From NCBI GenBank assembly GCA_031400935.1, contig JANNQV010000015.1:1-64000 (forward strand): a stretch of DNA of 64,000 bases. Direction: 5' to 3'. Of the stretch, positions 1,449 through 60,819 are shown piece by piece. Source of the stretch: Armatimonadota bacterium (GTDB taxonomy: Bacteria; Armatimonadota; Fimbriimonadia; Fimbriimonadales; Fimbriimonadaceae). Position numbers and translations under genes: made by a program. Numbering within the stretch: the stretch's first letter is position 1; each line of letters begins with the position of its first letter. Below the pieces are notes generated by a model. The model had not been told where the DNA came from. It saw only the letters and a list, made by a program, of their open reading frames with translations, and searched no databases.

Positions 1449-1495
1449 TTGTTGGTTGTTGGTTGTTGGTTGTTGGTTTGCGGTTAGCGGTTGGC
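1449..1495. repeat. Heptamer tandem repeat (GTTGGTT)n, degenerating to GCGGTTA
   Basis: Intergenic ggttgttggttgttggttgttggttgttggtttgcggttagcggttgg. Confidence 0.8.
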
Positions 1496-1607
1496 TCGCT
1501 CAAAACACATAGCACAGGAAACTCTTGGTACCGTATACCCTTAACCCCATACCCCACACCCTTTGGAGACAAAAGCCCGAACACTTGAGCGAGACGCCCA
1601 AGCCACA

Positions 1608-11117: not shown

Positions 11118-11149
11118 CACAATATTTCTACATTTATAGAAATATTGTG
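11118..11149. promoter_or_regulatory. Perfect 13-6-13 inverted repeat, probable ArsR/SmtB operator adjacent to a -10 box (TATAGT, 11151-11156)
   Basis: CACAATATTTCTA-cattta-TAGAAATATTGTG immediately upstream of the ArsR gene. Confidence 0.8.
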
Positions 11150-11162
11150 GTATAGTACTGTT

Positions 11163-11513
11163 GTGAGTATCGCACAGCAAGCCAAAGCCCTTAAAGCTCT
11201 AGGGGACCCCACTCGATTAAAGATCTTTCAATTCCTCAGCGCCTGTTGCTGTTCCGTAGCAATTGACGATGAAGGAGGCGTGCGCATTTCGGATGGGAAA
11301 ACCGTGGGCCAAGTCTGCTGCCACGTTACGGGCCAAGACAAGATTCCTTCGTCCATCAGCTTCCACTTAAAGGAGCTGTCTAACGCTGGATTGATTGTCA
11401 TGGAAAAGCGTGGCAAGCATGTGCTTTGCGCCGTCAACCGCGGGACGGTAGAAGGCCTTGTGCAGTTTTTTGGGCAGGTTTGCTGCTGCGAGCCACAGGA
11501 GAAAACAAAATGA
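11163..11513 (+). CDS. Cys-rich ArsR/SmtB family transcriptional regulator
   Basis: KALGDPTRLKI, SISFHLKELSNAGLI and EKRGK; CCC, CC and CCC clusters; GTG start 6 nt after TATAGT. Confidence 0.88.
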   Translation: MSIAQQAKALKALGDPTRLKIFQFLSACCCSVAIDDEGGVRISDGKTVGQVCCHVTGQDKIPSSISFHLKELSNAGLIVMEKRGKHVLCAVNRGTVEGLVQFFGQVCCCEPQEKTK

Positions 11514-11593
11514 AACATCAAAACGACCCAGACAAGCCTTGTTGCGGCGGATGCTGCGAACCTGGTTCTGGCTGTTGCGGCTGCGGATGCTAG
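11510..11593 (+). CDS. Unannotated 27-aa Cys-rich metallothionein-like peptide MKHQNDPDKPCCGGCCEPGSGCCGCGC
   Basis: ATGA overlap with the ArsR stop; CAGGAG SD at 11496-11501; 8 Cys; ends TAG. Confidence 0.7.
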   Translation: MKHQNDPDKPCCGGCCEPGSGCCGCGC

Positions 11594-11618
11594 TCGCCTG
11601 ACAATTAACTGCTTCTAG

Positions 11619-11667
11619 CCCCCTCCTTTTCCGAGGTACGAGGAAGAGGAGGGGGTTGGGGGCGGAG
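11619..11667. repeat. REP-like palindrome between convergent genes
   Basis: CCCCCTCCTTTTCC...GGAAGAGGAGGGGG followed by TTGGGGGCGGAG. Confidence 0.6.
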
Positions 11668-12528
11668 TTAAACTTCTAGTTCCCCAACAATCCTTTTCAC
11701 ATCGTCCCAATGCCCTTTCATATCGGAAAGCAGCGGTGTGTTTTGTCGTGCAATTTGGATGAGATCGAGATCGCAGTCCACGACCAACAAATGGTCTTCT
11801 TGAACCGGGCTTTGCCCGATCTGGTTTCCAAACGGATCGTAAACCGAGCTACCTCCGACCAATCCCTTGCCGCCTTCGAAGCCAGTCAATTGACAATTGA
11901 CTGCAAAGATTCCGTGCTCTTCAGCGCATGATTTGAGCATCCTTCCATATCGTGCCAGATTCCCAATTTCAGGAGTATCAAACCCTCGTGCGGGGCTTGC
12001 GCTTGGGACGATCAAGATTTGGGCTCCCGCCAAAGCTAGAAGAGTGGGCATCATCGAATGCCAAACATCTTCACAAATGAGAATTCCAAGCTTTCCAAAC
12101 CGGGTTTCAATGAGCCCCAGTTCCCTACCTCTAGCTACGAAACGGTCTTCATCGAATACGCCATAAGTTGCCAAAAAGAACTTTCTGTAAACCGATAAAA
12201 CCGTCGCTGTTCCTCCGGAGAATTCGATGTAAGCCGCGCTATTGTGAACCTGTCCCGAATGAATCTCATAAAAGCCAACAACGGCATCAATTGGCTTTTT
12301 CAGCTGCCCGAGACGTTCGCTTAGCTGTGATGCAAGGGTTTCGGCATCGAGAGCACATTCTAAAACGCCACCTTCCAATATGTATCCGCTGACCGCAGTT
12401 TCAGCAAAAGTTACGATGTCGCAACCTTGCTCAGCGCATTGAGTAATCGCATCGGCTATACGTCCAATGTTGCCGGAAATGTCTCCCTTTTCGGGCGTCA
12501 CTTGGGCGCAGCCAACTCGAACGGTCAT
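11668..12528 (-). CDS. Nitrilase-related carbon-nitrogen hydrolase (similar to the NAD synthetase glutaminase domain)
   Basis: E-K-C triad: FAET, YRKFFLATYGVFDE and ICEDVWH. Confidence 0.88.
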   Translation of the reverse strand: MTVRVGCAQVTPEKGDISGNIGRIADAITQCAEQGCDIVTFAETAVSGYILEGGVLECALDAETLASQLSERLGQLKKPIDAVVGFYEIHSGQVHNSAAYIEFSGGTATVLSVYRKFFLATYGVFDEDRFVARGRELGLIETRFGKLGILICEDVWHSMMPTLLALAGAQILIVPSASPARGFDTPEIGNLARYGRMLKSCAEEHGIFAVNCQLTGFEGGKGLVGGSSVYDPFGNQIGQSPVQEDHLLVVDCDLDLIQIARQNTPLLSDMKGHWDDVKRIVGELEV

Positions 12529-26712: not shown

Positions 26713-27789
26713 ATGAGTGTTTTCGAGCGATTTCTAACCATCTGGGTCTTCTTGTGCATTGCAGTTGGAGTTGTGCTTGGGCACCTGATTCCTGCCCCGT
26801 TTCAGGCGATTGGCGGACTTGAAATTGCCAAAGTCAATATTCCAGTAGCAGTTCTCATTTGGCTGATGATCGTTCCCATGCTGTTGAGAATTGATTTTGC
26901 ATCCCTGAAAAAGGTCGGGCGATTCTACAAAGGAACGGGGGTCACACTCTTTGTGAACTGGCTCGTGAAACCGTTCTCCATGGCACTTTTTGGATGGCTA
27001 TTCATCTCGGTGCTGTTTCGGCAATGGCTTCCAGCCGATCAAATTGACTCCTATCGCGCTGGGCTGATTTTGCTGGCGGCAGCACCTTGCACCGCCATGG
27101 TATTCGTTTGGAGCAATCTTTCACGTGGTGAACCGACCTTCACACTAACGCAAGTCGCTTTGAACGACATAGTCATGATTTTTGCCTTTGGCCCAATCGT
27201 TGGGCTGCTTTTGGGTCTTTCCTCAATTACAGTTCCGTGGGCAACGCTTTTCTTTTCGGTAGTTATCTTTATCGTTTTTCCTGTCTTAGTTTCGCAGATT
27301 TGGCGGACAATTCAACTTCGATCAAGTGGGGAGGCGAGCCTGTTGCGAACGATCGGCAGCCTGAATAAGGTATCGCTGATCGCGCTACTGACCACTCTAG
27401 TTTTGCTCTTTGGATTCCAGGGCGAAATGATCCTTTCTCAGCCACTTGTGATCGCCCTGCTTGCGGTTCCGATTTTGATCCAAGTTCTTATGAATTCCGG
27501 CCTTGCTTATCTGCTGAACAGGGCAGTAGGGTCGCCTCATTGCGTAGCAGGTCCGAGTTGCCGCATCGGTGCGAGCAATTTCTTTGAACTTGCTGTTGCA
27601 ACGGCAATTTCCCTTTTTGGATTTCGATCGGGTGCGGCTCTTGCTACAGTTGTCGGGGTGCTGATCGAAGTCCCAGTGATGCTCCTTGTTGTTCGCTACG
27701 TGAACCGGACTCAATTTTGGTATGAAAAGCGGAAAGGCATCCAGAGCTACGGTGAATGCTGCCCTGAGATGGAAGCCTTGGTAGCCTAG
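26713..27789 (+). CDS. acr3: ACR3 family arsenite efflux transporter
   Basis: FERFLTIWV, NWLVKPFSM, AAPCTAMVFVW, GASNFFELAVA and GVLIEVPVM. Confidence 0.95.
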   Translation: MSVFERFLTIWVFLCIAVGVVLGHLIPAPFQAIGGLEIAKVNIPVAVLIWLMIVPMLLRIDFASLKKVGRFYKGTGVTLFVNWLVKPFSMALFGWLFISVLFRQWLPADQIDSYRAGLILLAAAPCTAMVFVWSNLSRGEPTFTLTQVALNDIVMIFAFGPIVGLLLGLSSITVPWATLFFSVVIFIVFPVLVSQIWRTIQLRSSGEASLLRTIGSLNKVSLIALLTTLVLLFGFQGEMILSQPLVIALLAVPILIQVLMNSGLAYLLNRAVGSPHCVAGPSCRIGASNFFELAVATAISLFGFRSGAALATVVGVLIEVPVMLLVVRYVNRTQFWYEKRKGIQSYGECCPEMEALVA

Positions 27790-28193
27790 GACAATCGCGA
27801 CAGCAAGTCGTCCACGCGCCCTTTTATTTCATCGCGAATGTCGCGAAATGCACTCAGAACTTCAGCTTCTGTGCCAGAAGCGGCGGCGGGATCAGGCAAG
27901 TTCCAGGCTTCCGTTTTAGCTCCAGGAACGCTCGGACATTCTTTAGCCGCCGAACCGCAAACCGCCACGATAAGATTGATGGAATTGGGAACCTCTGCAA
28001 GGTGCTTTGGATCTGCCGAGGAAATATCAATACCGAGCTCTTTCATTGCCAAAACTGCCATTGGATGGACGGAACTTGCAGGTCGTGTTCCTGCGCTCCA
28101 GATCTCAATTTCTGAAGATGCGATGGCTTTTGCGAAGCCTTCAGCCATCTGGCTCCGGGCAGAATTCGCAGTACAAAGGAAGACAATGAGCAT
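27786..28193 (-). CDS. arsC: Arsenate reductase, thioredoxin-coupled LMW-PTP family
   Basis: CTANSARSQMAEG, second pair C..(6)..CP, and DP motif. Confidence 0.9.
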   Translation of the reverse strand: MLIVFLCTANSARSQMAEGFAKAIASSEIEIWSAGTRPASSVHPMAVLAMKELGIDISSADPKHLAEVPNSINLIVAVCGSAAKECPSVPGAKTEAWNLPDPAAASGTEAEVLSAFRDIRDEIKGRVDDLLSRLS

Positions 28194-60046: not shown

Positions 60047-60367
60047 GTGTCAGAAAAAATCTGGAAGGCACTCTCGGATTCGAGCAGAAGGCAGATATTG
60101 ACCATGCTTGCCAATGGCCCGAAAACGACTGGTGAGCTTTGCGATCAGATGAACAATCTAGATCGGTGTACCGTGATGATGCATCTAGGTTTGCTAGTGC
60201 ATGCCAATCTCGTGATTGTCCAAAGAGAAGGTCGCACCAGGTGGAACTACCTAAATGCAGTTCCGCTAGTGGGAATTCTGGAGGGATGGACAAATCCACG
60301 AGCCACCAAGCTTTCTAAAAAGCTGATCGAATTCAAAGGCACAATCGAATCAAAGGAGAATGAATGA
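60047..60367 (+). CDS. ArsR family transcriptional regulator
   Basis: WKALSDSSRRQIL, TTGELC, HLGLL and REGRTRWN. Confidence 0.88.
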   Translation: MSEKIWKALSDSSRRQILTMLANGPKTTGELCDQMNNLDRCTVMMHLGLLVHANLVIVQREGRTRWNYLNAVPLVGILEGWTNPRATKLSKKLIEFKGTIESKENE

Positions 60368-60819
60368 ACCAACAATCTACAGCCCAAGTCAAGCGACTCG
60401 TCGTCGAAATCGAATTATTGGCCTCAGTTCCCAAAGTATGGGAAGCACTTTTAAATGAAGCAAGTTTATGGTGGACAGAGGAATTTCTTGGAATTCCAGG
60501 TTCAAAGTGCATCAAACTTGAGCCTTGGGCAGGCGGAAGGCTTTATGAAGAATCCGAAAACGGTTCAATCCTGTGGGCAAATATCCTGTCCATCGTTCCT
60601 CAAAAAGGCATTGACTTTCTCGGATGGATGTCTCCAGCCTATGGGGGCCCGTGCTTTACGATGATCTGCATCACTTTGGCTGCAACCGAAAATGGAACAA
60701 AGTTCACCTTGAATGATTCTCTGGTTGGGGATGTTTCGGAAGGAACTGAGGCGAACTTGGACGAAGGTTGGAAAATGCTGTTTGGAACGATGTTCAAGAA
60801 TTATGTTGAAGGGAAGTAG
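60364..60819 (+). CDS. SRPBCC/AHSA1 domain protein
   Basis: VWEAL..WW, GGRLYE and EGW; coupled to ArsR. Confidence 0.8.
   Translation: MNQQSTAQVKRLVVEIELLASVPKVWEALLNEASLWWTEEFLGIPGSKCIKLEPWAGGRLYEESENGSILWANILSIVPQKGIDFLGWMSPAYGGPCFTMICITLAATENGTKFTLNDSLVGDVSEGTEANLDEGWKMLFGTMFKNYVEGK

Follow-up and report, generated by a model that had tools for sequence, protein, structure and literature searches.

The window, by which we mean the whole 64,000-nucleotide stretch of Armatimonadota DNA analyzed here, carries a compact two-gene unit on its forward strand. The first gene, arsR (11163 to 11513, GTG start), encodes a 116-aa repressor of the ArsR/SmtB family with nine cysteines and a beta-hairpin insertion before the helix-turn-helix (HTH). 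The second (11510 to 11593) is a 27-codon cysteine-rich micro-gene whose product, with eight cysteines, is a putative metallothionein-like binder of As(III) or soft metals. It is joined to arsR by an ATGA overlap (11510 to 11513) and preceded by a Shine-Dalgarno (SD) element, AGGAG (11497 to 11501, plus strand), which lies within the 3' end of arsR, 8 nt before the ATG. The peptide is 30% cysteine, lacks aromatic residues and shows CC, CxC and CxxC spacings. Upstream of arsR lies a palindrome (11118 to 11149), the predicted ArsR operator, together with an extended -10 element, TG-N-TATAGT (11148 to 11156, plus strand). Downstream, a GC-rich hairpin of 24 bp (11609 to 11665; -47.8 kcal/mol, z -6.1) is followed by a convergent carbon-nitrogen hydrolase gene, which closes the unit.

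Much of this had been listed in an initial annotation made from the DNA letters: the perfect 13-bp-arm palindrome adjoining the -10 box, the ATGA overlap with the micro-gene's own SD, the eight cysteines among the last 17 residues of the peptide, the CCC, CC and C-terminal CCC clusters of an ArsR with an insertion before the HTH, and the absence of a transporter from the unit. We found all of these as described, with the peptide sequence as it was quoted and with the hairpin and the convergent gene coming next; one near-invariant cysteine of the repressor, C89, had been missed. The hairpin has 23 BLAST matches in the genome, 14 of them of at least 41 nt including itself (13 others). As a dispersed REP-like repeat with neither a U-tract nor a terminator call, it was rejected as a dedicated terminator; it may end or stabilize the transcript.

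The predicted operator and the repressor

The two arms of the palindrome (11118 to 11130 and 11137 to 11149) are 13 nt each, 100% complementary and separated by a 6-nt spacer. Perfect repeats with arms of at least 13 nt number 61 in the 2.97-Mb genome, so that such a structure is not rare per se. Its core (11124 to 11143) matches the family consensus ATTTCGA-N6-TCGAAAT, a motif that is conserved upstream of orthologous arsR genes, and an operator site of at least 15 bits was present at 204 of 237 ArsR loci. In a genome scan for the operator, which the initial annotation had proposed as a check, we used a matrix built from the promoters of 23 relatives, with this locus and that of its congener left out. 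The palindrome at 11118 to 11149 was the top site at 30.7 bits (training sites, 15 to 35 bits), and the next best reached 18.1 bits. A -35-like hexamer lies inside the left arm, and the operator core covers the -35 region. The -10 element, from which we place the putative transcription start, ends 6 nt before the arsR GTG, and the same layout of operator, -10 element, 5 to 7 nt and in-frame start recurs at 97 of the 204 operator-bearing loci, which makes it probable that the arsR transcript is leaderless.

The repressor matches the Pfam families HTH_20 and HTH_5 just under their curated cut-offs because of its insertion, which in a structure model (pLDDT 81.8) forms a beta-hairpin lying between helix 1 and helix 2. 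A winged HTH fold and an autoregulatory palindrome place it among the ArsR/SmtB repressors. Sequence and fold comparisons with the PDB agree on the same best match, the As(III)-responsive ArsR 6J05, to which the repressor is closer than to SmtB, CzrA, CadC or CmtR, with SmtB at rank 22 or lower. Its cysteines form the clusters CCC (28 to 30), CC (52 and 53) and CCC (107 to 109), in addition to C89. Among 239 orthologues, C52 is kept in 238, C53 in 234 and C89 in 233; for the two C-terminal cysteines, the counts are 185 and 216. The C-terminal CC of 6J05 aligns with residues 107 to 109; of the AfArsR-type site (C95/C96/C102), the CC is thus aligned, whereas the cysteine at +6 is absent and a CCC triplet is found instead. 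The ArArsR-type site (C41/C80/C82) has one cysteine by the HTH and a CxC in the beta-wing; the repressor instead has a CC by the HTH and C89 as its only wing cysteine, and an analogous site geometry is possible. This cysteine set has no exact counterpart among the four As(III) site types described in the accessible part of PMC11868830 and no match among those listed in the accessible part of PMC13236881. The ligand site is most likely, as we infer, C52/C53/C89 and/or C107 to C109.

Two lines of evidence lead us to class this repressor as arsenic-type: its orthologues head arsM, arsD, arsI, arsC and acr3 operons, and its nearest structure is the As(III)-sensing 6J05. The operator core, TCG-N8-CGA, has the spacing of the site footprinted for ArArsR, an As(III) sensor, as given in the accessible part of PMC11868830. 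The subfamily as a whole (the window's copy and 239 orthologous loci) looks uncharacterized and is a candidate for a further As(III)-site type. Besides the beta-hairpin insertion, it is marked by the near-invariant C52-C53-C89, by a CC(C) behind helix 1 that varies between members and by a CC at the C-terminus.

The cysteine-rich micro-gene and its recurrence behind arsR

A loose filter (12 to 70 aa, at least 5 Cys and at least 18% Cys) passes 73 ORFs in the genome of 2.97 Mb, and a stricter one (at least 7 Cys and at least 25% Cys) passes two, of which only the 27-codon ORF is led by an SD. The same peptide is encoded in a congener (G001) and on a metagenome contig (L055). Between the window and L055, 80 of 84 nt are identical in the peptide ORF, 322 of 351 in arsR and 43 of 50 in the promoter, compared with 23 of 90 upstream and 13 of 30 downstream in ungapped comparison of the noncoding flanks. 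The pN/pS ratio of the window's peptide type (type A below) is 0.14, based on few changes, and that of six 22-aa relatives is 0.15, from pairwise counts that are non-independent. In these six, differences outside the arsR overlap fall at codon positions 1, 2 and 3 in 29, 25 and 96 cases, respectively. Since the micro-ORF is the sole SD-led ORF this rich in cysteine and is kept where the flanks diverge, we regard it as a real, selected gene coupled to arsR; the unannotated 27-aa micro-gene claimed at the outset is thereby borne out by conservation and selection (pN/pS, ∼0.15).

Two RNA-labelled runs from two studies, one of them only guessed to be RNA, each yielded a single contig of low depth on a 2.2-kb stretch around the unit (11473 to 11702 and 11171 to 11601), and both contigs cover the peptide. 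The runs contained 7 to 8% of the words, so that uncovered flanks are uninformative; such contigs cannot show transcription, and we take them as a weak hint. The 14 peptides (of 16) compared with Pfam matched no family at E values up to 10, and the five compared with NCBIfam likewise matched none, HMM searches being weak on queries of 22 to 29 aa. The ESM Atlas gave no match, and the PDB gave no metallothionein, its sole match being a chance-level cysteine pattern (E 0.3).

ArsR orthologues (E 1e-25 or better) were found in 102 of 175 genomes of the family and in 144 of 401 genomes of the phylum. Of the 135 loci in our first set, 129 (the window's among them) belong to the family, five to other families of the order and one to a metagenome contig. 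We applied the filter to a span that reaches from 60 nt upstream of the arsR stop to 150 nt downstream of it, and a cysteine-rich micro-ORF passed at 16 of these 135 loci (15 of 134 without the window), distributed over five genera and L055, against a chance expectation of 0.0026 per searched span, or ∼0.35 for 135 loci. Control spans were positive in 2 of 380 cases on the same strand and in 0 of 133 on the opposite strand, and both positives were internal starts in frame with the cysteine-rich tail of an ArsI-like gene. All 16 intact peptide ORFs have a GGAG/GAGG-type element upstream and encode 22 to 29 aa with 7 to 10 Cys. Inspection of the DNA downstream of ArsR orthologues for a small ORF had been suggested initially as a way to challenge the gene, and at the sequence level the gene passed. 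The micro-ORF is dispensable: in the first set, 118 of 135 loci do without it, and it is missing from 104 of 104 further ArsR loci (100 of them from other families of the phylum) and from 69 of 69 distant ArsR loci.

The peptide loci fall into three types. Type A (three loci, including the window) is a stand-alone unit. In type B (L041, L045, L136, L137 and L138, from four genera), the peptide gene separates arsR from arsC, and in four of the loci an aquaporin gene follows. Type C, with nine loci in one genus, one of which is out of frame, is again stand-alone; its ORFs start 23 to 26 nt inside arsR and end at a hairpin. Peptide alignments were scored against composition-matched shuffles, 1,000 each. 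For type A against the other types, the best result was 21/1,000 (L136), and the other nine comparisons gave 85 to 456/1,000; L138 connects type B with type C. Type A aligns with the others no better than composition-matched shuffles, so that a single homologous peptide family that includes it is not supported. Of the new family of tiny CC-rich chelators that had been proposed, recurrence behind arsR stands, common descent of type A with the others is not supported, and what we see the types share is position and composition. On a quick ArsR tree, the peptide label needs ∼7 changes, two of them forced, with 68 of 131 branches open.

A peptide-profile search of the 175 family genomes recovered three of its own training members and thus cannot show absence. 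The DNA pattern CCGGCC-x5-CCGC had 58 matches in a species-representative genome collection, one of them beside arsR (L258); this locus, whose unit is nearly that of the window, has the same peptide as L002 and is thus non-independent, and most other matches look like off-frame readings of GC-rich repeats. A metagenome scan with ArsR gave one close locus among the 80 matches listed. One of the pattern matches, in a Gemmatimonadota contig (L250, ∼1468 to 1557, plus strand), is a stand-alone candidate, an SD-led ORF of 29 aa with nine Cys and the spacing CCGGCC-x5-CC, with no arsR nearby and -9.4 bits against the ArsR operator matrix. Fused cysteine-rich, metallothionein-like tails occur at the C-terminus of ArsR itself in L028 (11 Cys in the last 36 aa), L213 and L157.

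Arsenic context and possible roles of the peptide

The first gene after arsR in the 135 loci encodes ArsM in 60 cases, ArsD in 21, ArsC in 8, an ArsI-like protein in 7, Acr3 in 6, an aquaporin in 4 and the peptide in 17 (one out of frame), and in 12 cases none was recognized; these names were confirmed on one example each, with the ArsC and MIP examples falling below cut-off. An ars gene lies directly downstream of the orthologous arsR at 106 of 135 loci, and the window copy is followed by the peptide only. A true ArsM was found in 0 of 16 peptide genomes (best E 5e-12, partial) versus 56 of 86 other ArsR-bearing family genomes, a comparison in which kin are non-independent and six peptide genomes do not reach the standard of 90% completeness and 5% contamination. 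This exclusion is partly built in because both genes use the slot behind arsR, and it fits either sequestration replacing methylation or a peptide born from arsM DNA.

Other occupants of this slot were also recorded. Cysteine-poor arsM stubs stand behind arsR in L049 and L153, and with the out-of-frame type C copy (L050) they illustrate turnover of the slot. Several genomes have read-through fusions of ArsR to an ArsM-like protein (∼400 aa) or to an ArsC-like protein (fusion loci L007, L204, L338, L344, L359, L365, L368 and L369; L018 and L342), which we judged by length and C-terminal sequence and some of which may be assembly artifacts. In other families (L273, L279, L281 and L282), the slot often holds a protein of 160 to 190 aa with a cysteine-rich C-terminal tail.

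Our best reading, to which we give a probability of roughly 55%, is that the peptide acts as a metallothionein-like thiol sink induced by As(III) or Sb(III). The arsR-peptide pair would then be an autoregulated two-gene arsenic-response unit. To judge from the layout, ArsR would bind the palindrome over the -35 region and repress the leaderless arsR-peptide transcript; binding of As(III), Sb(III) or MAs(III) to the ArsR cysteines would release it, and the micro-ORF would be translated through its own SD and the ATGA overlap, presumably in a coupled manner. By analogy with three-cysteine As(III) chemistry, the unstructured eight-thiol peptide could bind ∼2 to 3 As(III) as AsS3 centers. It would thus be a ribosomally made sink, phytochelatin- or metallothionein-like, that lowers free arsenite in lineages without ArsM methylation, and in the arsR-peptide-arsC-aquaporin relatives it would catch the As(III) made by ArsC. 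In this genome, the peptide gene would be the only predicted ArsR target. The peptide had initially been described as a chelator for As(III), Cd, Cu or Hg; the context favors As(III)/Sb(III) and speaks against giving Cd, Cu and Hg equal weight. Since cysteine-rich peptides are no worse at binding Cu(I), Cd, Hg and Zn than at binding As, the arsenic assignment of the peptide rests on gene context.

A storage role is not the only way in which such a peptide could serve an ars operon. It might instead be a shuttle or tuner, either a mini-metallochaperone that carries As(III) from ArsC to an exporter in the manner of ArsD or AntC, a thiol partner of ArsC, or a buffer that sets the threshold or shut-off of ArsR induction. 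Four of the five type B operons are translationally coupled to arsC (TGATG, TAGATG, TAAATG or a 6-nt gap), cysteine runs fused to the ArsR C-terminus (L028, L213 and L157) tie such a segment to the sensor, and the accessible part of PMC12641948 describes AntC, which an ArsR-family repressor controls, as a sequestering chaperone. We nevertheless find this role rather unlikely, as 12 of the 17 loci (types A and C) have no ars effector gene downstream within the fetched DNA, and the peptides, at 36% C, 15% G and 12% N, have no conserved non-cysteine surface and would be poor at specific protein contacts. The ArsD profile NF033727 matches none of the peptides, although a true ArsD scored above cut-off in the same test. 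Alternatively, the metal might not be arsenic: in the stand-alone units, from which ars genes are missing, the nine-cysteine repressor could have been retuned to soft metals, and the peptide would be a thionein for Cu(I), Cd, Hg or Zn and the pair a true SmtB-SmtA analogue. The CC, CxC and CxxC spacings are general metallothionein motifs (PMC13578184, accessible part), and the cysteine clusters of the repressor exceed what As sensing needs. This seems unlikely to us, given that the same repressor subfamily, with the same cysteine set and operator, drives ars operons throughout the phylum, that type B peptides lie inside ars operons and that the repressor is more akin to 6J05 than to SmtB, CzrA, CadC or CmtR.

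Two further explanations are less likely still. The peptide could be a relic with little or no function, either the stub of a deleted arsM, whose N-terminal linker is cysteine-rich, or a split-off ArsR tail. The peptide gene sits in the slot of arsM and the two were never found together, type B peptides begin like the local ArsM (MTNEN in L136 versus MANEL in the sister locus L049), and decayed copies of both kinds exist (arsM stubs in L049 and L153; an out-of-frame type C copy in L050). A functionless relic is quite improbable: pN/pS is ∼0.15, the start, stop and SD are conserved, lengths change by whole codons, and the peptides have 7 to 10 Cys in 22 to 29 aa. Moreover, the true arsM stubs have 0 or 1 Cys and no ArsM-like continuation, and the frame relative to arsR varies between types, which speaks against a conserved frameshift. 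The peptide may have originated from arsM DNA, with its product under selection. Finally, a short cysteine-rich ORF whose cysteine-free N-terminal stretch could pass for a leader before a core might encode the precursor of a posttranslationally modified cysteine peptide (RiPP). We consider this barely credible: in type C there is almost no leader, and no modifying enzyme gene was recognized beside any of the 17 loci, whose neighbors were read by eye.

Related systems and other elements of the genome

The SmtB-SmtA pair of Synechococcus resembles the unit in having a small cysteine-rich gene under an adjacent ArsR/SmtB-family repressor with its operator in the promoter. There, the zinc-responsive SmtB is divergently transcribed (PMC7387436, accessible part), whereas our unit has an arsenic-type repressor whose gene runs in the same direction as the peptide gene and is translationally coupled to it. 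SmtA is reportedly ∼56 aa long, about twice the length of the peptide, which has no His in its cysteine region. With no match in Pfam, NCBIfam or the PDB and with genes that are not divergent, the peptide does not join the BmtA/SmtA family. The pairing logic of SmtB/SmtA that had been invoked for the locus thus applies, whereas membership of the peptide in the SmtA family does not. As(III)-responsive ArsR systems (AfArsR 6J05, ArArsR, R773 ArsR and CgArsR) share with ours an autoregulated winged-helix repressor whose operator lies over the -35 region and, for AfArsR 6J05 and ArArsR, an aligned C-terminal vicinal CC (6J05) and footprint-like operator spacing (ArArsR). They differ in that the cargo here is a micro-peptide and not a pump, reductase or methylase, and in the near-invariant C52-C53-C89 with the beta-hairpin insertion, which has no exact match in the accessible part of PMC11868830. 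By description, AntC, in the AntR-AntC-AntA system of the Comamonas ant operon, would be the nearest metalloid precedent: like ArsD, it is a trivalent-metalloid-sequestering protein under ArsR-family control (PMC12641948, accessible part). Both are chaperones serving an ATPase pump, in contrast to the peptide unit, which has no pump; AntC was compared by description only.

Phytochelatins, small fungal and algal metallothioneins and MymT of Mycobacterium are likewise short Cys/Gly-rich thiol chelators. Our peptide differs in being gene-encoded, bacterial and apparently arsenic-regulated, MymT being copper-regulated; it has no sequence match to them. Fungal Cu-thioneins of ∼25 aa exist, as do fungal metallothioneins below 3.5 kDa. 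The motif profile of the metallothionein superfamily is present (8 Cys among 27 residues, CC/CxC/CxxC and no aromatic residues). By hand calculation, the peptide has a mass of ∼2.7 kDa, below the metallothionein range of ∼3.5 to 14 kDa (PMC13578184, accessible part), which is a soft criterion. Chelation of As(III) is established for eukaryotes and listed as a eukaryotic route (PMC11868830, accessible part), and an algal metallothionein has been used in E. coli for As(III) removal (PMC6215804, accessible part). Bacterial metallothioneins, for their part, are described as few (PMC13578184 and PMC11672702, accessible parts).

According to the accessible part of a 2025 paper, a gene for intracellular sequestration is so far unknown in ars operons (PMC12093948). 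A selected, ArsR-coupled micro-gene with eight thiols is a direct candidate for this missing function. The logic of an ArsR/SmtB repressor paired with a cysteine-rich chelator is already known, and the micro-gene itself is uncharacterized: the open-access titles and abstracts searched contain no description of an ArsR-coupled micro-metallothionein. The product is most likely a tiny arsenite-trapping peptide. More tentatively, we suggest that gene-encoded "arsenothioneins" of 20 to 30 residues, which escape gene callers by their small size, have originated several times behind arsR as As(III)-sequestering ribosomal equivalents of phytochelatins and as stand-ins for ArsM, forming an overlooked arm of bacterial arsenic resistance in which the ars operon is reduced here to a sensor with an undescribed C52/C53/C89 site and a sponge; taken whole, this is a proposal that we are slightly inclined to doubt. 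As an arsenic binder, the micro-gene product would extend the few known bacterial metallothioneins to arsenic and to a smaller size, and it could find use as a compact component for capturing or sensing arsenic.

No ars effector gene adjoins the unit in the window; acr3 (26713 to 27789), a profile match above cut-off, and an arsC-like gene (27786 to 28193, minus strand) are unlinked to it. The initial annotation had suggested that ArsR may also control this acr3/arsC locus, a suggestion that the sequence does not support: neither gene has an operator, with best scores of 0.1 bits for acr3 and -7.7 bits for arsC (training sites, 15 to 35 bits) and of 9.0 bits at most at the congener's acr3 locus. 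A mismatch scan of the genome with the full palindrome arms found nothing under seven mismatches. The next five matrix matches (15.4 to 18.1 bits) are not credible as ArsR targets; they fall within coding sequence or ahead of genes that have no obvious link to arsenic. The genome is 95.6% complete, so that an unassembled ArsR target is possible; tblastn gave no match to ArsA or ArsD in it. Between 25674 and 29025, the window also has a gene with an AbiJ N-terminal domain divergent from acr3, the convergent arsC-like gene and a MIP channel gene; the neighbors of acr3 are rearranged in the congener, and this segment is therefore not a conserved operon. At 60077 to 60819, the window has another ArsR-family gene with an AHSA1-domain gene behind it, unrelated to the arsR-peptide unit.
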